DNA of 55,137 nucleotides from Bacteroidota bacterium (lineage in GTDB: Bacteria > Bacteroidota > Bacteroidia > AKYH767-A > 2013-40CM-41-45). The stretch spans positions 1-55,137 of the forward strand of contig JAYTXY010000056.1 of the NCBI GenBank assembly GCA_043742705.1, given 5' to 3'. Positions 25,814 through 55,137 of this stretch are shown in pieces. The notes beneath the pieces are model-generated. The model was not told the origin of the DNA and made no database searches. It saw only the letters and a program-made list of their open reading frames with translations. Made by a program: the position numbers and the translations under genes. Each line of letters begins with the position of its first letter. The stretch's first letter is position 1.

Positions 25814-27820
25814 ATGGCTTTTCCAAAAAAAAATTTTCCGGAAACATTTTTCTTTTTTCTTATTGTCGGATTCCTGAGTTATTGGCTGTATGTCAGCCGG
25901 ATCAGTTTATTTCCTTCCTTCATTCATGCATGGACACAGAGTGATCGTTACGCTCTTGCATTGGGATTTCTCAACAACGGTTTTGATTTCTTCCACCCGC
26001 AGACTTTCAATCTCATTACTGTAAACGGAATCACACAGGTTGATTTTCCGATTCACGAATATGTTGTTGCGTTGCTAATGAAACTCTCGGGAATTCACGA
26101 ACCGGTAGTTTTCAGGATGTATACGCTTTGTTATGGAGTAGTTGGATTGTATTTTATTTTTCGCCTTGTGAAAGATTTCGGAGGAACATTCTTCCATGGT
26201 TTGTTTGTGGCACTATTTATAATGACGTGTCCTGTTTTCACGTATTACCTCGATGGATTTCTTCCTTCCATTCCATCTTTCGCAAATGCGATGATTGGTT
26301 ACTATTTTTTCTTTCGGTATAAAAGAGACTCCGTCCGGAGAGATTTTATTCTCTCTATTCTTTTCTTCACATTGGCTGCGTTGGCACGTTTGCCATTTAT
26401 CATTTTCCTTTTTGCGATTTGTGCCCAACAACTCCTGGACTATCTCCGGAGAAAAAAGATGAATCGTCCTGAACTTTCACTGATGGCAGGCGGATTAGGG
26501 TTTGTTCTGCTTTATTTATTCTACAACATCTTCCTTGCGAAAAAATACGGCTCTCAGTTTCTGCTTGCTTTAATGCCTGCGGAAAGCATTGCTGACTTCA
26601 AAGAACTCTTCTCCCGTGTAATTGCGCAGTGGAAGTATGAATATTTTTCAACCTTCCATTATTACACCTTGGTCGTGATTCTTGTTTTTACAATTTCTTT
26701 CATCCTGATTAAAAAAACAATTTCAGAAAACAAGTTCATGCTTACGCAACTAGTCATTGCATTCTGCGGAAGCGCTCTTTATTTAATTTTGATGACACAA
26801 CAATTTCCGGAACACGATTATTATTTCATTGACTCCTTTTATCCTGTTGTTGCTTTGCTTCTTGTTTACTGCATACTCAGAATACAAACACCTTCTCCCT
26901 TATCGAAGATCTTTTTTACGCTTGTCACCTGCTTGATGATTTATTTTTTCAGCACTGCGACAAGCAAGGTGCAGGATGAACGATACAAATTCCAAACGTG
27001 GGACCGGACAGAAATAACGCGACAGAATTTTACAGGTGCTGAACATTTTATTGATTCCATCGGAATTTCAAAAGATGCAAAAATGCTCGTGCTGGATGCA
27101 TATACGACCAACACTTCCTTGATCCTGATGAACAGAAAAGGCCATACACTGTTGTGGACAACAAAAGAAAATATAGACACCTTTCTGAAAAAAGATGTTG
27201 ATTATGTTGTCATGCAAAATTGCTTTCTTCCTTCCGACATCATTCATTTTGATCCTGAAATTATTGCGCAACTCGAAAAAGTGGCTGATAACGGAACCAT
27301 CAGCATTTATCGAAAAGAGAAAAAAGAAAATCGAACCCTGGACGAATTTCTTGGAATTAAAAAGGAAACAACTTTATACAATTGCTTTAATGATTTTGAA
27401 AGCGACAGTTCCTGTAAGAATGCAGACTTATCAAAACGATCCTCCGAAAATAAATTTGACGGAACATCTTCCCTGCTCGTGGACGGCATGACTGAAGATT
27501 CTCCGACATTTCATTTTGTTAAAACAGATCTTCCGTTTGTAAAGTCAACACAGGTTTTAATTCATTCGATGATCTTTCGGGAAAACGACATGAAAGATAT
27601 TTATGTGGTCGCATCACTGATTCACGGAAACGAAACTTATTTCTACAGAGACTTCAGCATGAATCAATACATTGGAAACACCACAGGCTGGCAGGAAATC
27701 ATGTTTCAATTTGTACTTCCAGAAATAAAAAGCAACGAAGATCGGTTAAGTATTTATTTCTCGAATAAAAGTAAAAGCAGATTTTATCTCGATGACTTCA
27801 GGCTGACGATGCACCGCTGA
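25814..27820 (+). CDS. GT-C-like (ArnT/GT39-83-like) polytopic membrane protein with a C-terminal jelly-roll/CBM-like domain
   Basis: 668 aa. Many TM segments are followed by a soluble tail of roughly 240 aa ending ...SRFYLDDFRLTMHR (a CBM-like final strand). The family is inferred from architecture. Confidence 0.6.
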   Translation: MAFPKKNFPETFFFFLIVGFLSYWLYVSRISLFPSFIHAWTQSDRYALALGFLNNGFDFFHPQTFNLITVNGITQVDFPIHEYVVALLMKLSGIHEPVVFRMYTLCYGVVGLYFIFRLVKDFGGTFFHGLFVALFIMTCPVFTYYLDGFLPSIPSFANAMIGYYFFFRYKRDSVRRDFILSILFFTLAALARLPFIIFLFAICAQQLLDYLRRKKMNRPELSLMAGGLGFVLLYLFYNIFLAKKYGSQFLLALMPAESIADFKELFSRVIAQWKYEYFSTFHYYTLVVILVFTISFILIKKTISENKFMLTQLVIAFCGSALYLILMTQQFPEHDYYFIDSFYPVVALLLVYCILRIQTPSPLSKIFFTLVTCLMIYFFSTATSKVQDERYKFQTWDRTEITRQNFTGAEHFIDSIGISKDAKMLVLDAYTTNTSLILMNRKGHTLLWTTKENIDTFLKKDVDYVVMQNCFLPSDIIHFDPEIIAQLEKVADNGTISIYRKEKKENRTLDEFLGIKKETTLYNCFNDFESDSSCKNADLSKRSSENKFDGTSSLLVDGMTEDSPTFHFVKTDLPFVKSTQVLIHSMIFRENDMKDIYVVASLIHGNETYFYRDFSMNQYIGNTTGWQEIMFQFVLPEIKSNEDRLSIYFSNKSKSRFYLDDFRLTMHR

Positions 27821-27860: not shown

Positions 27861-27890
27861 CATAGCCCACGGATTAATCCGTGGGCTATG
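27861..27890. terminator. Perfect 13-bp hairpin between the convergent GT-C-like gene and uvrC
   Basis: catagcccacgga ttaa tccgtgggctatg. Confidence 0.6.
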
Positions 27891-27929: not shown

Positions 27930-29741
27930 TTATTGAAGAGAAGAACCTTTCGGATGAAAAAAAAGATATACAATTGTTGTTTTCGATTTACCAATCGTTG
28001 CTTCCAATTCTTCAATAGTCGCTTCCTTTATTTTCTTCACCGACTTAAAATGCCTGAGCAATTCTTCCGCTGTTTTTTCTCCGATTCCTTTAATCTCTGA
28101 TAGTTCTGTTTTCACTACACCTTTACTTCTCCGATTCCGGTGGTGCGTGATTCCGAAACGGTGAACTTCATCACGTAACTGCTGAATGATATGAAGCGTC
28201 TGACTTTTCTTATCAATGTACAACGGAACAGAATCTCCCGGATAATAAATTTCTTCAAGTCGCTTTGCAATTCCAATGACAGCAATCTTCCCGACCAGAT
28301 TCAATTTTTCTAAACTTGTCATCGCAGAACTTAATTGTCCTTTGCCGCCATCAATTACAATGAGTTGAGGAAGCTCCATTGCTTCATCGATCATCCGTTT
28401 ATACCTGCGATACACCACTTCTTCCATGGAAGCGAAATCATCCGGACCTTCCACAGTTTTAATGTTAAAATGGCGATAATCCTTCTTGCTCGGTTTTCCG
28501 TTTTTGAAAACACTCATCGCTGCAACAGGATAAGCTCCCTGGAAATTTGAGTTGTCGAAACATTCAATGTGTCGTGGCAATTCGGACAAGCGTAAATCCT
28601 TTTTCATTTGTTCCATCAGCTTCAAGACTTTGTTCTCAGGATTTTGTTTCTCCTGTTGAAGTTCTTTCTCCCGCATGTAATTGATAACATTCTTTTCAGA
28701 GAGTAATAACAAGTGCCTTTTATCTCCGATTTTTGGAACAGTAAAAACCAGTGAAGCATCTTCCATCTGCATTTCGAAAGGAACAAGAATTTCTGTTGCA
28801 TCACTTTGAAAGCGTGTACGCAAATCAGCGATGGCAATTTCCAAAAGTTCCTCTGGAGTCTCATCCAACTTTCGTTTCAGTTCAATAGTATGTCCCTGGA
28901 TGATTGAACCGTTCATCACTTTTAAAAAGTTTACGTAACCATAATCGTCTTCTGTTTTGATGGAGAAGACATCTACGTTATGAATGGCAGGATTCACCAC
29001 GACTGACTTGCTTCTGAATTTTTCCAGCAACTCCAGTTTCTCTTTGACAAGATGAGCGTCTTCAAATTTCATTTCCGTTGAAAACTGCTGCATCATTTCC
29101 TTCAGGTGATTGATGACCGAGCTGATGTTCCCTTTCAGAATGCTCCGAATTTCTTTAATGCTTTGTTCGTACTCGTCAAACGATTGCAATCCTTCGCATG
29201 GACCTTTGCAATTGCCGAGATGAAACTCCAGACACACTTTGAATTTTTTCTTTAAAATATTTTCTTCTGATAAATTCAGCGCGCAGTTGCGTAACTTGTA
29301 AAGCTGTGTAATCATATCCAATAACATGTGGACCATCTTCACCGAAGTATATGGACCGAAATATTCCGAACCGTCACGAATGAGTTTACGTGTGGAAAAA
29401 ATTCGTGGGAAACGTTCCTTCTTTATGCATATCCACGGAAATGTTTTGTCGTCTTTCAGGTTTGCATTGTAACGTGGTTGATATTTTTTGATAAGATTAT
29501 TTTCCAGCAACAACGCATCCATTTCCGTATCAACAACAATTGTTTTGATGTCGGCAATTTTTCTGACAAGCATCGTTGTTTTTCCACTCTCATGTCGGTC
29601 TTTTTGAAAATAGCTGCTGACGCGCTTCTTCAGCGACTTCGCTTTCCCTACATAAATTATCTTACCGTCTTTATCAAAATACTGATAGACTCCGGGTTTA
29701 TCGGGAAGGGTGGAAAGGATGGATTCGATTTGAGTGCTCAC
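27930..29741 (-). CDS. uvrC: Excinuclease ABC subunit C
   Basis: GIY-YIG N-terminus (GVYQYFDKDGKIIYVGKAKSLKKRVSSY), UVR domain, endonuclease V-like domain and C-terminal HhH2. The start is GTG. Confidence 0.93.
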   Translation of the reverse strand: MSTQIESILSTLPDKPGVYQYFDKDGKIIYVGKAKSLKKRVSSYFQKDRHESGKTTMLVRKIADIKTIVVDTEMDALLLENNLIKKYQPRYNANLKDDKTFPWICIKKERFPRIFSTRKLIRDGSEYFGPYTSVKMVHMLLDMITQLYKLRNCALNLSEENILKKKFKVCLEFHLGNCKGPCEGLQSFDEYEQSIKEIRSILKGNISSVINHLKEMMQQFSTEMKFEDAHLVKEKLELLEKFRSKSVVVNPAIHNVDVFSIKTEDDYGYVNFLKVMNGSIIQGHTIELKRKLDETPEELLEIAIADLRTRFQSDATEILVPFEMQMEDASLVFTVPKIGDKRHLLLLSEKNVINYMREKELQQEKQNPENKVLKLMEQMKKDLRLSELPRHIECFDNSNFQGAYPVAAMSVFKNGKPSKKDYRHFNIKTVEGPDDFASMEEVVYRRYKRMIDEAMELPQLIVIDGGKGQLSSAMTSLEKLNLVGKIAVIGIAKRLEEIYYPGDSVPLYIDKKSQTLHIIQQLRDEVHRFGITHHRNRRSKGVVKTELSEIKGIGEKTAEELLRHFKSVKKIKEATIEELEATIGKSKTTIVYLFFHPKGSSLQ

Positions 29742-33478: not shown

Positions 33479-36400
33479 TCAATTTACCCGCAAAGCTTCG
33501 TTCTTTTTAATGGATATAGTTGTTCGTAAATCTTCGTCAACCTCAATGTTGACAGCATCTTTGTCATTTAATGAATCAACAAATTCAAGCGAAGTCGCTA
33601 AAATTTCCGCGCAAATATATACTTTATTATTTAATATGGAGGTCTTGATGGCTGCGTGATTCAGGACTTTCAGGTCGATTTTATCGGTCACTTCAAAACC
33701 CTTGTCTTTTCGTAAATTCTGAATCCTGTTAACGAATTCCCGGGCTATTCCTTCTTCCCGAAGTTGCTCATCAATTTTGATGTCGAGCGCAACAGTCAAC
33801 TTGCCTTCCGTGGCGACTTCCCATCCCGGAATGTCTTCGGAGAGGATTTCAACGTCTTCTTCTGAAAGAGATACAATTGTACCGTTCACCTGCAGATCAA
33901 ATTTTTTCTCCGCTTCTAACTGAAGAATATCTTCCTGTGAAAAATTCTGAACAGCTGCGGCAACATCTTTCATCAGTGCTCCGACTTTTTTTCCAAGTAC
34001 TTTAAAATTAGGTTTGATTTTCTTGACAAGAATTCCGGAAGTGTCTGTGATGTATTCAACTTGCTTCACATTTACTTCTGCAAGAATTAATTCTTTTATC
34101 GAATCTACTTTCGACTGAAACGATTTATCCAAAACAGGAACAAGGATTTTATTCAAAGGCTGACGAACACGGATATTTACTTTCTTTCGTAAAGACAATA
34201 CCATCGAAGAAATTTTCTGCGCCAGTTCCATTCGTTCTTCAAGCAACTTATCAATCAGTTGATCGTTGCTCACAGGAAAATCTCCAAGATGAACAGAAGA
34301 AACATTTTTCCGCTTTGCGATGTTGTTCAGATCCGTAAACAAACGATCGGAATAAAACGGTGCCACCGGTGACATCAGCAATGCAATGCTTTCAAGACAT
34401 GTGTACAACGTTTGGTAAGCAGCAGTTTTATCTTCTGAATAATCTCCTTTCCAGAATCTTCTCCGGCACAAACGAACGTACCAATTACTCAGGTGCTCCG
34501 TTACAAAATCCTGGATGGCGCGTGTAGCTTTTGTGGGTTCGTAATCTGCATAGCATTCATCCACGAATTTGATGAGTGAATTCAACTCTGATAAAATCCA
34601 TCGATCAATTTCAGGTCGTGCTGAAACAGGAATTTCCTTTTCAGCATACGCGAATCCGTCAATGTTTGCATACAATGCAAAAAAGGAATACGTGTTGTAA
34701 AGTGTTCCGAAAAATTTTCGCTGCACTTCACCGATTCCATCCACATTAAATTTCAGGTTGTCCCACGGCTGCGCATTGCTGATCAGGTACCATCGTGTTG
34801 CATCAGGTCCGTATTTCTCAATCGTCTCAAACGGATCAACAGCATTGCCTAAACGCTTCGACATTTTATTTCCGTTCTTGTCGAGTACCAAACCGTTACT
34901 CACCACATTTTTGAAAGCAACGGAATCGAACAACATCACAGCAATCGTATGAAGTGTGAAAAACCATCCGCGTGTCTGGTCAACTCCTTCAGCAATAAAA
35001 TCTGCGGGGAAAGCCCCTCCCTGACCCTCCCCAAAAGGGAGGGAACGAGGTTCTCCCATATAATGGTATTGTGCATACGGCATGGCACCGCTGTCGAACC
35101 ACACATCGATGAGATCCGCCTCACGGATCATTTTCTTTCCTGAATCAGAAACCAAAATAATGTTGTCGACATAAGGACGATGTAAATCAAAATCCGGTTT
35201 TGATGCATCCACATGTTCAAGATGAGATTTGTCCATGAACCCTGCAGCGATGGATTTCTCAATTTCCTTTTTCAATTCTTCAATGGAGCCAATGCATTTT
35301 TCTTCCTTCAAATCTTCGGTTCTCCAGATCGGAAGCGGAATTCCCCAAAAGCGTGAACGGGATAAATTCCAGTCGACCAAATTTTCAAGCCAGTTTCCAA
35401 AACGACCAGTTCCCGTGGACTCAGGTTTCCAGTTAATGGTTTTATTAAGTTCAATAAGTCTGTCCTTCGCTGCCGTTGTTTTGATGAACCATGAATCCAG
35501 CGGATAATAAAGAACAGGTTTATCAGTGCGCCAGCAATGCGGATAGCTGTGTTCGTACTTCTCAACTTTGAATGCTTTGTTTTCTTTTTTCAGTTTGATG
35601 GAAATGCGTTCATCCACCGATAAATATTTTTCTCCGCCTTGTTTCTTTCGTTCTGCTTCCTTTTCTTCTTCTGTTAAGTATTGTTCTTTCACATACTCAT
35701 TCGCAAAGTCTGTTACTTCAGAAACGAAGCGTCCTTGCTTGTCAACGAGCGTGAGTGAGCCTAAACCATTTTGTTTTGCTGTGCGAAAATCGTCTGCGCC
35801 AAAACTCGGAGCGATGTGAACGATTCCTGTTCCGTCTTCTGTCGTTACAAAATCTCCAAGCACCACTTTGAATGCTTCGCCATCGTTCGGCTTCACATAC
35901 GGAAGTAATTGATCGTAACGAATTCCTTCGAGTTCTTTTCCTTTAAATTCTGCAATGACTCTATATGGTATCAGCTTGTCGCCTTCTTTGTAATCTTCCA
36001 GTTTCAATTCAACATTCTTCTCTGAAAAATATTTTCCAAAAAGATCATTCGCAAGAATAACCGTGATCGGTTTGTGCGTATATTGATTAAACGTTTTTAC
36101 AGCGACATACGGAATGTCTTTCCCAACAGCAAGTGCAGTGTTCGAAGGTAGCGTCCATGGTGTGGTCGTCCAGGCAAGAAAAAATAAATCTCCTTCCAGC
36201 CCAACCAACTGAGAACTGTTGACTACAGATCGCACCTGAAATTGCGCAACAACGGTTGTATCTCTCACCATTTTGTACGTTCCCGGCTGATTCAGTTCAT
36301 GCGAACTCAATCCTGTTCCTGCTGCAGGAGAATATGGTTGAATGGTATATCCTTCGTACAACAATCCTTTCTTGTAAAGTTCCTTCAGCAAATACCAGCA

Positions 36401-36877
36401 GGTTTCGATGTAGTTGTTTTCAAACGTCACATACGGATGTTCGAGATCAACCCAATAACCCATCTTACGTGTGAGATCATCCCACACGTTTTTATATTTC
36501 ATGACTTCCTTGCGGCAAGCCTTGTTATAATCTTCAATCGAAATTTTTTTTCCGATGTCTTCCTTACGAATGCCCAATGTTTTCTCCACACTCAGTTCAA
36601 TCGGTAACCCGTGTGTATCCCATCCGCCTTTGCGTTTCACCTGGAAACCTTTCAATGTTTTGTAACGGCAGAAAATATCTTTGATCGCACGCGCCATCAC
36701 GTGATGAATGCCGGGCAAACCATTCGCTGATGGCGGACCTTCATAAAACGTAAAAGCAGGTTTACCTTCGCGGGTCGTCACACTTTGCTCAAAAGTTCTT
36801 TCCTTGTCCCATCGCAGCAATTCTTCTTTGCCGACAGAACCAAGATCAAGCTGTTTATATTCTCTGTACTTACTCAT
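33479..36877 (-). CDS. ileS: Isoleucine--tRNA ligase (long, type 2)
   Basis: 1132 aa. Contains PSANGLPGIHHVMARA (HIGH region), the editing CP1 domain, KMSKRLGN (KMSKS) and FPADFIAEGVDQTRGWF. Confidence 0.95.
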   Translation of the reverse strand: MSKYREYKQLDLGSVGKEELLRWDKERTFEQSVTTREGKPAFTFYEGPPSANGLPGIHHVMARAIKDIFCRYKTLKGFQVKRKGGWDTHGLPIELSVEKTLGIRKEDIGKKISIEDYNKACRKEVMKYKNVWDDLTRKMGYWVDLEHPYVTFENNYIETCWYLLKELYKKGLLYEGYTIQPYSPAAGTGLSSHELNQPGTYKMVRDTTVVAQFQVRSVVNSSQLVGLEGDLFFLAWTTTPWTLPSNTALAVGKDIPYVAVKTFNQYTHKPITVILANDLFGKYFSEKNVELKLEDYKEGDKLIPYRVIAEFKGKELEGIRYDQLLPYVKPNDGEAFKVVLGDFVTTEDGTGIVHIAPSFGADDFRTAKQNGLGSLTLVDKQGRFVSEVTDFANEYVKEQYLTEEEKEAERKKQGGEKYLSVDERISIKLKKENKAFKVEKYEHSYPHCWRTDKPVLYYPLDSWFIKTTAAKDRLIELNKTINWKPESTGTGRFGNWLENLVDWNLSRSRFWGIPLPIWRTEDLKEEKCIGSIEELKKEIEKSIAAGFMDKSHLEHVDASKPDFDLHRPYVDNIILVSDSGKKMIREADLIDVWFDSGAMPYAQYHYMGEPRSLPFGEGQGGAFPADFIAEGVDQTRGWFFTLHTIAVMLFDSVAFKNVVSNGLVLDKNGNKMSKRLGNAVDPFETIEKYGPDATRWYLISNAQPWDNLKFNVDGIGEVQRKFFGTLYNTYSFFALYANIDGFAYAEKEIPVSARPEIDRWILSELNSLIKFVDECYADYEPTKATRAIQDFVTEHLSNWYVRLCRRRFWKGDYSEDKTAAYQTLYTCLESIALLMSPVAPFYSDRLFTDLNNIAKRKNVSSVHLGDFPVSNDQLIDKLLEERMELAQKISSMVLSLRKKVNIRVRQPLNKILVPVLDKSFQSKVDSIKELILAEVNVKQVEYITDTSGILVKKIKPNFKVLGKKVGALMKDVAAAVQNFSQEDILQLEAEKKFDLQVNGTIVSLSEEDVEILSEDIPGWEVATEGKLTVALDIKIDEQLREEGIAREFVNRIQNLRKDKGFEVTDKIDLKVLNHAAIKTSILNNKVYICAEILATSLEFVDSLNDKDAVNIEVDEDLRTTISIKKNEALRVN
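35012..35059 (-). repeat. In-frame palindromic insert-like segment in ileS encoding MGEPRSLPFGEGQGGA
   Basis: The coding strand reads tccctcccttttggggagggtcagggaggggct (stem ccctccc/gggaggg). The 33-nt core at 35012-35044 is very similar to 54619-54650 in aspS. Confidence 0.6.
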
Positions 36878-52423: not shown

Positions 52424-52441
52424 AAGTAGTATAAAAGATTG

Positions 52442-52495
52442 TTTATTGGTTCACTAGTTCATTGGTGGGAATACAAATGAACTAATGAACTAAAT
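52442..52495. repeat. Hairpin with tagttcattgg-type arms between the convergent DUF885 gene and pgk (likely a bidirectional terminator)
   Basis: tggttcactagttcattgg pairs with caaatgaactaatgaacta (about 16/19). The loop is tgggaata. Confidence 0.65.
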
Positions 52496-52497
52496 TA

Positions 52498-53781: not shown

Positions 53782-55137
53782 TTACTTTACGTTAACGTTG
53801 ATACCCAATTCCTTCAACTGATCAGTATGAAGCGATGACGGAGCATCAATCATCACATCTCTTCCTGAATTATTTTTCGGAAAAGCAATGTAATCGCGGA
53901 TTGAGTCAGAACCTCCAAACAACGAACAAAGTCTATCAAAGCCAAAAGCAATACCTCCATGCGGTGGTGCTCCGAATTCAAATGCATTCATTAAAAAACC
54001 GAATTGGCTTTGCGCATCTTCCGGAGTAAACCCAAGAATGGAAAACATTTTTTGTTGCAACTCTTTGTTGTGAATACGAATAGAGCCTCCGCCCACTTCT
54101 GTTCCATTGATCACCATGTCGTACGCATTCGCTCTCACTTCACCCGGATTTTTTCCGAGCAATGCAATGTCTTCCGGTTTCGGTGACGTAAACGGATGAT
54201 GCATAGCATGCCAACGTTTTGTTTCATCGTTGTATTCCAGCAATGGAAAATCAAGCACCCACAATGCTTTGTACTCATCTTTGTTTCGCAAGCCAAGACG
54301 GTTTCCCATTTCAAGGCGAAGCTCACTCATCGCTTTGCGGGTTTTATTTTTTTCTCCGGCTAAAATCAAAATTAAATCTCCTTGCTGTCCTCCGCAGTTT
54401 TCAAACCATTTTTTTTGAGCGTCTGTGTCATAGAATTTATCTACTGATGATTTCAAAGAATCATCCGTGTTCCATCGTGCATACACCAATCCCGTTGCTC
54501 CAATCTGCGGACGCTTTACCCATTCTGTCAATTCATCCAGTTGTTTGCGTGTATACTCCACACATCCTTTTGCACAAATTGCAACAACTAATTCTGCATC
54601 ATCAAAGACTTTGAAACCAGCCCCACCTAAATCCTCCCCAAAGGGAAGGACTTTTCCGCCAGCGTTTACAGGTGGTTTCAATTCAACCAACTTCATCTCG
54701 AAACGAATGTCAGGCTTATCGTTTCCATATTGTTTCATTGCATCTTCAAACGTCATGCGCGGTAAAGAAGGAACATCCACTCCTTTCACTGTTTTAAAAA
54801 GATGACGAATCATTCCTTCAAATGTTTGAAGAATATCTTCTTGCTCAATAAAACTCATCTCGCAGTCAATCTGTGTGAACTCAGGTTGACGGTCGGCTCG
54901 CAAATCTTCATCACGAAAACATTTCACAACCTGGTAATATTTGTCCATTCCCGCCACCATCAATAACTGTTTAAATGTTTGGGGAGATTGCGGCAGCGCA
55001 TAAAATTCCCCCTGGTTCATGCGAGAAGGAACTACAAAATCACGCGCTCCTTCCGGAGTTGATTTAATAAGTACGGGAGTCTCCACTTCAACAAAATTTA
55101 TGGCGTTGAGATAATTTCTTGTTTCAGCAGCAACGCG
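53782..55137 (-). CDS. aspS: Aspartate--tRNA ligase, C-terminal ~450 aa; the N-terminus lies beyond the window end
   Basis: The frame stays open to nt 55137 (upstream reads ...[21 protein letters not shown]). Contains [18 protein letters not shown] (motif 2), GGGSIRIH and GIAFGFDRL (motif 3). Confidence 0.93.
54616..54678 (-). repeat. In-frame palindromic insert-like segment in aspS encoding [21 protein letters not shown]
   Basis: The coding strand reads ccacct...tccttccctttggggaggatttaggtggggct. There is an inner palindrome tccttccc/ggggagga and an outer 6-bp inverted repeat ccacct/aggtgg. The core at 54619-54650 matches 35012-35044 in ileS. Confidence 0.6.

Follow-up and report, generated by a model that had tools for sequence, protein, structure and literature searches.

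In-frame hairpin inserts in aspS and ileS of a Bacteroidota bacterium as probable remnants of DUF559 nuclease cassettes

Two essential aminoacyl-tRNA synthetase (aaRS) genes of a Bacteroidota bacterium, aspS and ileS, each contain a short, GC-rich, hairpin-forming insert in the reading frame of the enzyme. Both genes lie on contig JAYTXY010000056.1 of assembly GCA_043742705.1, of which positions 1–55,137 were analyzed and are referred to here as the window. In other Bacteroidota, sequences matching the two inserts form the right-hand ends of cassettes that consist of an inverted ~35-bp end, an open reading frame (ORF) for a DUF559 endonuclease, and a second end, and that are themselves placed in frame within conserved genes. 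It is reasonably probable that both window inserts are translated remnants of such cassettes, which would have spread by homing or gene conversion and later lost the nuclease. A sequence-only reading of the window had proposed a mobile palindrome tolerated in translation; comparisons with orthologs, between the two copies and across genomes support a palindrome derived from mobile DNA in two unrelated essential aaRS genes, but that description is incomplete, in that the palindrome is the terminal inverted repeat of a DUF559/Vsr-like cassette.

The aspS gene (aspartate–tRNA ligase) occupies 53782–55137 on the minus strand and continues beyond the window edge: its 3' 451 codons and stop lie inside the window, the 5' end being cut off. 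Protein P0001 (595 aa) is the window's AspRS (100% identity over 451 aa), and the match of the window's enzyme to PDB entry 6wom has E = 6e-201 (HMMER). When aligned by HMMER with 6wom (Bacteroidota-type) and 1efw (Thermus), the enzyme shows a loop of 21 codons (54616–54678, minus strand), exactly between VEL and FKVF, opposite a clean gap of 13 residues; the usual loop has 8 residues, a net gain of 13, in agreement with the earlier estimate of about 21 residues against about 8. Inside this loop lies an intact right-end element (54619–54653, minus strand; coding strand AAGTCCTTCCCTTTGGGGAGGATTTAGGTGGGGCT), the boundaries of which were taken from the 27-copy consensus of what we term subfamily A. 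Its hairpin core (54632–54650, minus strand), TCCTCCCC-AAA-GGGAAGGA, has an 8-bp pyrimidine/purine stem with one T·G mismatch and a 3-nt loop, grows to 11 bp once the AAGT/ATTT flanks are counted, and has a predicted minimum free energy of −15.2 kcal/mol with 11 paired positions (ViennaRNA); the orthologous copy of locus L001 has an 8-bp stem without mismatch. The fold of the aspS region alone is not significant (z = −1.25), so that the case stands on comparative evidence and not on folding energy: the identical site is occupied in AspRS proteins P0002 (L001) and P0109 (L206), and three independent assemblies (those of the window, L001 and L206) carry the same insert.

Nested palindromes had been reported in the aspS insert, and both are present, the inner one being the hairpin with its mismatch. 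The outer one (CCACCT/AGGTGG, at 54623–54628 and 54670–54675) is better read as the tails of two cassette ends: the CCACCT of a probable decayed left, inverted end (54654–54678, minus strand; coding strand AAACCACCTGTAAACGCTGGCGGAA, a remnant of a C-rich tail) pairs with the AGGTGG in the tail of the intact right end, and decay of the left end to CCACCTGTAAACGCTGGCGG would account for the palindrome. A perfect 9-nt inverted repeat, TTGAAACCA/TGGTTTCAA (54611–54619 and 54673–54681), also brackets the whole loop; it is composed partly of the conserved EL and FK codons, has a chance expectation of about 0.09 in 300 nt by a rough hand estimate, and may reflect chance or an extension of the element termini. 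In an AlphaFold2 model of full-length P0001 (mean predicted local distance difference test score, pLDDT, 71; predicted template modeling score 0.64), the loop (residues 298–318) is a low-confidence coil between a strand at 295–298 and the GAD insertion domain, with pLDDT < 50 at residues 302–313. Whether the loop is solvent-exposed had been put forward as a check; the model is consistent with an insert in a flexible surface loop at the entry to the GAD domain, being too weak for finer claims.

The second copy lies in ileS (isoleucine–tRNA ligase, 1132 aa; 33479–36877, minus strand), the product of which is 59–73% identical to the IleRS of loci L114, L126, L129 and L130. Here a right-end element of subfamily B (35012–35046, minus strand; coding strand GTTCCCTCCCTTTTGGGGAGGGTCAGGGAGGGGCT) directly abuts FPADFIAEGVDQ, with positions 35012–35044 encoding SLPFGEGQGGA immediately before that block. 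The hairpin (35025–35043, minus strand) has a perfect 7-bp stem, CCCTCCC/GGGAGGG, and a 5-nt loop; it is the sole perfect pyrimidine/purine GC-rich hairpin in the window, and its DNA fold has a z-score of −2.3. Aligned with a single gap, the aspS and ileS copies agree at 26 of 33 positions; aligned without gaps in a shared frame, they agree at 23 of 30. The core pattern common to them occurs twice in the window against 0.02 occurrences expected, none of 100 shuffles yielding two or more. The likeness between the aspS core and the ileS element, as first noticed from the letters alone, is therefore far above chance. Of the accompanying claim that the genes carry the same element in the same frame, the single family and the shared frame stand, but the copies belong to two subfamilies, A in aspS and B in ileS.

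The connection to a nuclease is most direct at the ileS site. Two IleRS proteins, those of L045 (Prolixibacteraceae) and L100 (Flammeovirgaceae), contain a complete DUF559 domain (PF04480, E ~1e-32) in frame, in the very loop that carries the window's element, between WFDSGAMPYAQ and FPADFIAEGVDQ; the element (encoding SLPFGEGRGGA or SLPFGEGWGGA) follows directly after DUF559, and before DUF559 comes an inverted end made up of a C-rich tail and then a hairpin. Full cassettes are found at this site, with the junction element|FPADF, in seven independent assemblies from different orders (L126–L130, L045 and L100), a solo right end is found at the same junction in the window and in L114, and the site is empty in most Bacteroidota, as judged from an IleRS ortholog survey that is thinner than the AspRS survey described below (its query was a fragment, and most of the proteins recovered were partial). 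In the two IleRS cassettes viewed by eye (e.g., L045: TTTGAA|...|TTATTC), no target-site duplication was evident. Both window copies correspond to right ends: that of the L129 IleRS cassette (TTCCCTCCCTTTGGGGGAGGGTCAGGGAGGGGCT) scores 32 against the 35-nt window ileS copy (+1/−1 local alignment), and that of the L182 cassette (AAGTCCTCCCCTTTGGGGAGGATTTAGGAGGGGCT) shares 33 of 35 positions with the aspS copy. A cassette may have ends of different types, the left end of L182 being of subfamily B and its right end of subfamily A, and the ends of cassettes L166, L198 and L148 share their hairpin with another AspRS insert, SPLLWRGAGGEA.

A profile of the cassette DUF559 domains matches the DUF559 structure 3hrl (E = 2e-29) and also 3r3p (E = 1e-6), which is the catalytic domain of I-Bth0305I, a homing endonuclease from a group I intron. 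The motif (I/V)E(I/L)DG.YH is kept in all four aligned cassette nucleases (L045, L100, L047 and L092) and is degraded in the LeuRS of L107. VSR, DUF559 and 3r3p have been placed in one PD-(D/E)xK family (Steczkiewicz et al., 2012; PMC3424549), and by profile similarity the cassette nuclease is homologous to the Vsr-like/EDxHD homing endonuclease I-Bth0305I.

A protein-database search with the DUF559 profile turned up no host fusions, its matches all being short called ORFs, many of which start or finish with hairpin-encoded peptides; the fusions appeared in a metagenome DNA scan with the same profile, which comprised 80 loci. In 57 of these, the nuclease frame runs on without a stop for 100 codons or more on both sides, and in 43 the nuclease is flanked on both sides by perfect pyrimidine/purine hairpins. 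In the cassettes that were read out of these 43 (L161, L166, L169, L172 and L193), the hairpins upstream and downstream are reverse complements of each other, and the hairpin sequence varies from cassette to cassette: the pair is TCCCCTCTCC-AAA-GGAGAGGGGA versus CCCCTCTCC-TTT-GGAGAGGGG in L166, likewise has loops AAA versus TTT in L169, and is CCCCCTCCGGTGGAGGGGG versus CCCCCTCCACCGGAGGGGG in L172. At L092, a free-standing DUF559 gene lies between similar hairpins and has its stop codon in the loop of the downstream one.

The hosts, assigned by clustering followed by Pfam searches on representatives, were MetH (23 of the 80 loci), class I aaRS (19), IcmF-like mutases (10), CinA (3), adenine deaminase (2) and RecG (2), with single loci in a MiaB-like enzyme, RibD, GDP-mannose dehydratase, UDP-GlcNAc 2-epimerase, SpoIIE and an AAA_11 helicase. 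In this metagenome sample, no other hosts are as common as B12 enzymes. DUF559 lies between the B12 cap and the B12-binding domain in MetH, and between the B12-binding and MeaB domains in the IcmF-like B12-binding/MeaB/methylmalonyl-CoA-mutase fusions (e.g., L047:1143–5315, L145, L161, L162, L172, L184, L185 and L190). The class I aaRS cassettes include those in IleRS at the window's site (L126–L130) and at a second site (L136), LeuRS, and MetRS. A Pfam scan of 23 cassette-bearing host proteins returned no Hint or intein family, only DUF559 and MTES_1575, so that the insert, unlike an intein, presumably stays in the protein. To judge by the reading frames, the cassettes sit in the host frame without intein or intron, although no search was aimed at RNA introns.

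Several host proteins are more complex. The LeuRS of L205 (1260–4382) has two in-frame DUF559 domains, and that of L171 (3125–6550) has an in-frame NUDIX domain (aa 542–657) besides DUF559; other domains may ride into the same enzymes. The LeuRS of L160 (3194–6325) has an in-frame DUF559 at aa 272–374 and also three element-like peptides side by side (ILPFGEDSEG..SLSFGEGKGG.VLGEDLGGV) in a different loop, upstream of KMSKS, which suggests several remnants stacked at one site. A number of IleRS entries of 450–600 aa (P0123, P0125, P0150, P0209 and others) are called "partial" on contigs of 0.2–1.7 Mb, and gene callers may break up IleRS where a cassette is inserted or where a frameshift falls in a GC-rich hairpin.

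The distribution of the element itself was obtained by scanning one genome per species with the pattern CCTYCCYTTYGGGGAGGNNNNNGGNGGGGC, and all counts for the family are among the matches listed. These hold at least 127 copies, nearly all in Bacteroidota (Chitinophagales, Cytophagales, Flavobacteriales, Prolixibacteraceae, Sphingobacteriales and Bacteroidales), with a few in Ignavibacteriota and isolated others. The wider search that the sequence-only reading had called for thus located ~35-nt sequences in more than 120 places of other genomes, both in unrelated genes and in intergenic DNA. The plan of the element is a pyrimidine arm, a loop, a purine arm and a G-rich tail ending in GGGGCT; the family consensus reads AAGT or aCTC, hairpin CCTYCCY-TTY-GGGGAGG, a 5-nt spacer, and tail GGNGGGGC(T), and because conservation ends at these boundaries, the element measures ~35 nt. 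Subfamily A (AAGT-CCTCCCYTTYGGGGAGG-ATTTA-GGWGGGGC-T; 27 copies) accommodates the aspS copy, and subfamily B (aCTC-CCTCCCYTTYGGGGAGG-GTNGG-GGWGGGGC-T; 98 copies) the ileS copy. Stop-free ORFs of at least 150 aa hold 76 of the 127 copies (~60%), in several frames, 53 of them on the same strand as the ORF and 23 on the opposite strand. When 74 host ORFs were surveyed with Pfam, the families included class I aaRS (6), PolA (3), methylmalonyl-CoA mutase (3), UvrA (2) and DUF559 (4), and no recurrent transposase family. Solo in-ORF copies are also present in the isolate genomes of Arenibacter, Polaribacter porphyrae and Flavobacterium glaciei, which speaks against assembly artefacts.

Some matches depart from this pattern. 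In an uncultured Bacteroides metagenome-assembled genome (MAG; L071:1166–1419, contig CAZNGJ010000115), five subfamily B elements stand in tandem at ~60-nt spacing inside a 374-aa ORF, with repeated flanks (actgcgcagtYc...) and more than 12 pattern matches on other contigs of the same MAG; this looks like tandem amplification of element plus flank. Near-perfect elements occur under the labels Paenibacillus sinensis (L022), Desulfamplus (L028) and Hyphomicrobiales (L051), and further ones under Caldilineaceae (L088) and Candidatus Magasanikbacteria (L103). The L103 element and its 24-nt flank are identical to those of L094 (Bacteroidia) and the host ORFs co-cluster, suggesting bin contamination; the other four could be due to contamination or horizontal transfer.

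The AspRS loop was followed through the 120 closest orthologs (75–100% identity, all labelled "MAG Bacteroidia/Bacteroidota"). Comparison with orthologs had been proposed as a check: most have 8 residues in the loop (e.g., VELNDVTKGKNFKVF), and orthologs free of the element do not match the insert in length, their loop being shorter. The window-type 11-residue peptide (subfamily A) is found in P0001, P0002 and P0109, SPLLWRGAGGEA in 11 proteins, TPDPSPKERGG in 2 (a third, truncated carrier being omitted), and SPxLSxGEG in 10. The DNA of the SPLLWRGAGGEA insert (L002) reads CCCCTCTCC-TTT-GGAGAGGGG, then CCGGGGGTGAGGCT, and the TPDPSPKERGG insert (L003) is its reverse complement, with 33 of 34 nt identical: one DNA element occurs in the same loop in both orientations and encodes unrelated peptides, which excludes a protein-level motif. 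The nearest neighbor of each of the three subfamily A carriers is an empty-site protein, and at L004 the site is empty in an AspRS that is 84% identical, with aspS–pgk synteny conserved. On a loop-masked neighbor-joining tree of 117 AspRS orthologs, at least 16 gains or losses are needed to explain four element states, a figure that uses element states only (the Fitch count of 21 includes a noisy "+5" class and is inflated). The AspRS loop is an insertion hotspot with repeated presence/absence turnover.

These comparisons leave very little room for an ordinary lineage-specific loop expansion whose likeness to ileS is convergent or due to chance, or for an assembly artefact, which we consider scarcely credible. 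It is true that the AspRS loop varies in length even without a recognizable element, as in the +5 variant NNxENNLIAG, and that the IleRS loop varies across Bacteroidota as well. Ordinary expansion would, however, have to yield a shared pattern 100-fold over chance expectation, nucleotide identity to copies that other orders carry in intergenic DNA and in unrelated genes, and a reverse-complement insertion in the same AspRS loop. It would also have to produce GGG-rich codons that make a hairpin in a 40% GC genome (window GC, 0.40; both inserts are GC-rich), and the same aspS insert in three independent assemblies.

Cassettes with this anatomy lodge in loops of conserved housekeeping genes, in the host frame and apparently without intron or intein, so that the host protein would be translated straight through them, their GC-rich ends encoding Gly/Pro-rich linkers such as SLPFGEGxGGA. 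In the mechanism that we propose, the nuclease would cut empty sites or extruded hairpins, and the cassette would be copied in by recombinational repair, i.e., by homing. Loss of the nuclease ORF by internal deletion would first leave two ends back to back, the state of aspS (in which the left end has decayed), then a single end, the state of ileS, until the remnant drifts into an ordinary lineage-specific loop. Arrangements resembling each of these stages can be found. A left-end-type hairpin with a 5' C-rich tail lies within 200 nt upstream of 51 of 116 "solo" copies, against 9 downstream (p = 3e-8), and the head-to-head end pairs are spaced by 1–170 nt, indicating that many solo copies are nuclease-less two-ended units. 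In the AspRS of L206 (P0109), the insert reads AAA|AGCCCCC-ATGC-GGGAGGG-CAAGT-CCTCCCCTTTGGGGAGGATTTAGGAGGGGCT|GGC, with termini AGCCCC...GGGGCT. Decayed loops at the IleRS site include DPATAPFTKDTPA (P0121), LPFKDEYNSA (P0147) and TPFNEGFGSA (P0135), that of P0121 following the window's ileS copy codon by codon with the hairpin structure gone. Within the same loop, at the place of window positions 35012–35046, the IleRS of a Flavobacterium sp. (P0239) has a different 21-residue insert, GSCHSELVSESNENQNQVKVD, whose CHSELVSES-type peptide we take to resemble another palindromic repeat family of Flavobacteriia; this suggests that the IleRS loop accepts several element families.

A number of observations weigh against descent of the inserts from nuclease cassettes. 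The decayed left end probably present in the window's aspS insert is weakly marked in the window sequence itself, where its similarity score of 7 was equalled in 60 of 500 shuffles. There is no DUF559 gene in the 55-kb window, and no AspRS with a full DUF559 cassette among the 120 orthologs or the 80 DUF559 loci, so that the link for aspS stands on the identity with the cassette end of L182, which lies in another gene, and on the two-ended structure of L206. Only three of the 127 listed copies share a host ORF with DUF559, beside it or within ~80 codons (L045, L100 and L047), and if all solo copies are remnants, nuclease loss must be fast; in the LeuRS of L107, an element and a distant, degenerate DUF559 occur in the same ORF. 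The LeuRS of L107 and L025 each have a clean 11-residue solo insertion relative to the empty L158, with no trace of a left end, and none of the six LeuRS cassettes lies at the site of these solo copies; such clean insertions fit single ends that move on their own no less well than they fit decay. Finally, the examples of cassettes come mostly from MAGs and metagenome contigs, yet the arrangement recurs in many independent assemblies.

The same observations give some purchase to a different history, which we judge possible but rather unlikely, in which the ~35-nt hairpin is itself mobile in the manner of a repetitive extragenic palindrome (REP) or a MITE (miniature inverted-repeat transposable element), as single units or head-to-head pairs moved in trans by DUF559 or another enzyme. 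The aspS and ileS inserts would then be primary insertions, and the DUF559 ORFs either the autonomous form or secondary invaders between hairpins. The exact empty site of the LeuRS insertion fits such a history, as do the large excess of solo and paired copies over nuclease-bearing ones, the near-identity of ~30-nt copies between different orders, which suggests recent spread, and the differing subfamilies of the two L182 ends, expected if a nuclease gene came to lie between elements that were already there; REPs within genes, tRNA synthetase genes among them, are known in other phyla (PMC3733652). It accords less well with the full cassettes at one IleRS junction in seven assemblies, for which homing is simpler than repeated solo insertion plus nuclease invasion, with the lack of the GTAG or CGTC tag of REPs mobilized by REP-associated tyrosine transposases (RAYTs), or with the lack of a recurrent transposase family among the host ORFs.

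It is also conceivable, but very improbable in our estimate, that the hairpin or a G-quadruplex (G4) is a selected nucleic-acid signal (for mRNA stability, translation pausing or a G4/hairpin switch) and the peptide is incidental. A four-run G-tract with a canonical G4 motif (35014–35032, minus strand; coding strand GGGGAGGGTCAGGGAGGGG; found by regular expression and ViennaRNA) overlaps the 3' arm of the ileS hairpin, and with RNA parameters and G4s allowed, ViennaRNA predicts the G4 of subfamily B to be stabler than the hairpin (−22.8 versus −15.7 kcal/mol). A conserved G4–hairpin switch has been proposed for E. coli (PMC5100583), regulatory hairpins upstream of Vsr-like endonuclease genes were proposed by Dassa et al. 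(PMC2677866), and class I aaRS make up 6 of the 74 host ORFs. The aspS copy, of subfamily A, has no canonical G4, however, and folds as a hairpin only; copies lie in both orientations, in several frames, and in dozens of unrelated genes and intergenic DNA; they decay freely, as shown by the mismatch in the window's aspS hairpin and the lost structure of P0121; and close relatives do without the element. As a defining trait of the element, the G4 was rejected, since the canonical motif is confined to subfamily B.

Two further features of the window lie apart from the inserts. Its strongest perfect hairpin (27863–27888; TAGCCCACGG-ATTAAT-CCGTGGGCTA, 10-bp stem) separates the convergent ORFs 25814–27820 (+) and 27930–29741 (−) and probably serves as a bidirectional terminator; it has no relation to the element family. 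Between pgk and a DUF885 gene, L004 has two genes that the window lacks, LigB and a GIY-YIG nuclease ORF of 97 aa (L004:11401–11694), the window having a mere 74-nt spacer there (~52424–52497); the GIY-YIG ORF is another small nuclease gene present or absent between close relatives.

Textbooks give two ways in which a nuclease gene can reside within an essential gene without destroying its function, as part of an intein or of a self-splicing intron. The cassettes suggest a third route: in frame, in a surface loop, as a tolerated extra domain with built-in linkers. We see an even chance that they make up an unreported class of selfish element in Bacteroidota: intron- and intein-free, in-frame DUF559 homing-type genes with hairpin ends that invade loops of essential enzymes (IleRS, LeuRS, MetRS, AspRS, MetH, IcmF, RecG and others), lose the nuclease, leave scars of 11–20 residues and are a major, recurring source of lineage-specific insertions. 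If true, this would give many of the lineage-specific indels in core enzymes, aaRS included, an origin that can be tested, with a bearing on alignment-based phylogeny, on indels as clade markers and on structure prediction. It also suggests that DUF559, a large family of unknown function, consists of mobile endonucleases at least in its Bacteroidota members. The cassettes would also furnish candidate protein-engineering tools: permissive sites and linkers that occur naturally in essential enzymes, and possibly sequence- or structure-specific nucleases. Annotators of Bacteroidota proteins can mark peptides of the kind SLPFGEGxGGA, SPLLWRGAGGEA and PSPKERG as derived from the element. In the open-access literature, we found no description of the Bacteroidota element, of DUF559 as a mobile in-frame cassette, or of intein- and intron-less read-through with hairpin ends, though an earlier one is possible; mentions of DUF559 there appeared incidental from titles and abstracts.

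In-frame palindromic DNA, as in Rickettsia palindromic elements (RPEs) and intragenic REPs, is already known, and so are Vsr-like homing endonucleases. RPEs, described by Ogata et al. in 2000, are ~100–150 bp long and restricted to Rickettsia, and we know of no enzyme associated with them. Like RPEs, which are translated as a surface peptide, the element is palindromic selfish DNA that lies in functional protein-coding genes as well as in intergenic DNA, and its copies in conserved hosts appear in frame and stop-free; unlike them, it is ~35 bp long, occurs phylum-wide and forms the ends of endonuclease cassettes, and we expect no likeness in sequence between the two. RPEs are referred to in PMC3733652 and listed in PMC10969869.

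REPs and the inverted pairs known as REPINs are 20–40 bp, GC-rich, imperfect palindromes, and a RAYT gene flanked by inverted copies forms a "REPtron"; some REPs are intragenic, including in tRNA synthetase genes (Di Nocera et al., 2013; PMC3733652). The element resembles them in size, composition, frequent inverted pairing and the presence of an associated gene between inverted copies. It differs in that the associated gene encodes a PD-(D/E)xK nuclease and not an HUH Y1 transposase, that this gene is itself in frame inside host genes, and that ~60% of the listed copies lie inside ORFs, whereas REPs are mostly extragenic. Membership in the REP/RAYT group was rejected, as the ends are AAGT/aCTC and GGGGCT and neither strand has GTAG or CGTC (the criterion given in PMC3733652); Y1_Tnp is not among the top families in the Pfam census of host ORFs, neighboring genes not having been scanned systematically. 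The head-to-head pairs, such as the AGCCCC...GGGGCT unit of L206, resemble MITEs in having two terminal inverted repeats without a coding region, but the parent gene is a PD-(D/E)xK nuclease and not a DDE-type transposase. With inteins, the cassettes share conserved sites in essential enzymes, an in-frame homing-type nuclease and sporadic occurrence among orthologs.

The closest likeness in enzyme is to the Vsr-like (EDxHD) nucleases of the I-Bth0305I and "fractured gene" type (PMC2677866, PMC3239194), which are homologous to the cassette nuclease and likewise combine housekeeping-gene hosts, hairpins, and sites that are filled or empty among orthologs, as in IleRS. Vsr-like homing endonuclease genes fracture conserved genes and have conserved hairpins alongside, and one locus retains the hairpin after loss of the endonuclease (Dassa et al., 2009; PMC2677866). 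Members known so far stand alone between the halves of split inteins or lie in group I introns, the host product being restored by splicing, whereas the Bacteroidota nuclease lies in the host frame and appears to stay in the protein, with inverted hairpin-plus-G-tail ends on both sides; and the known members reside in phage or in phage-like loci of marine metagenomes, whereas the hosts here are Bacteroidota chromosomes.

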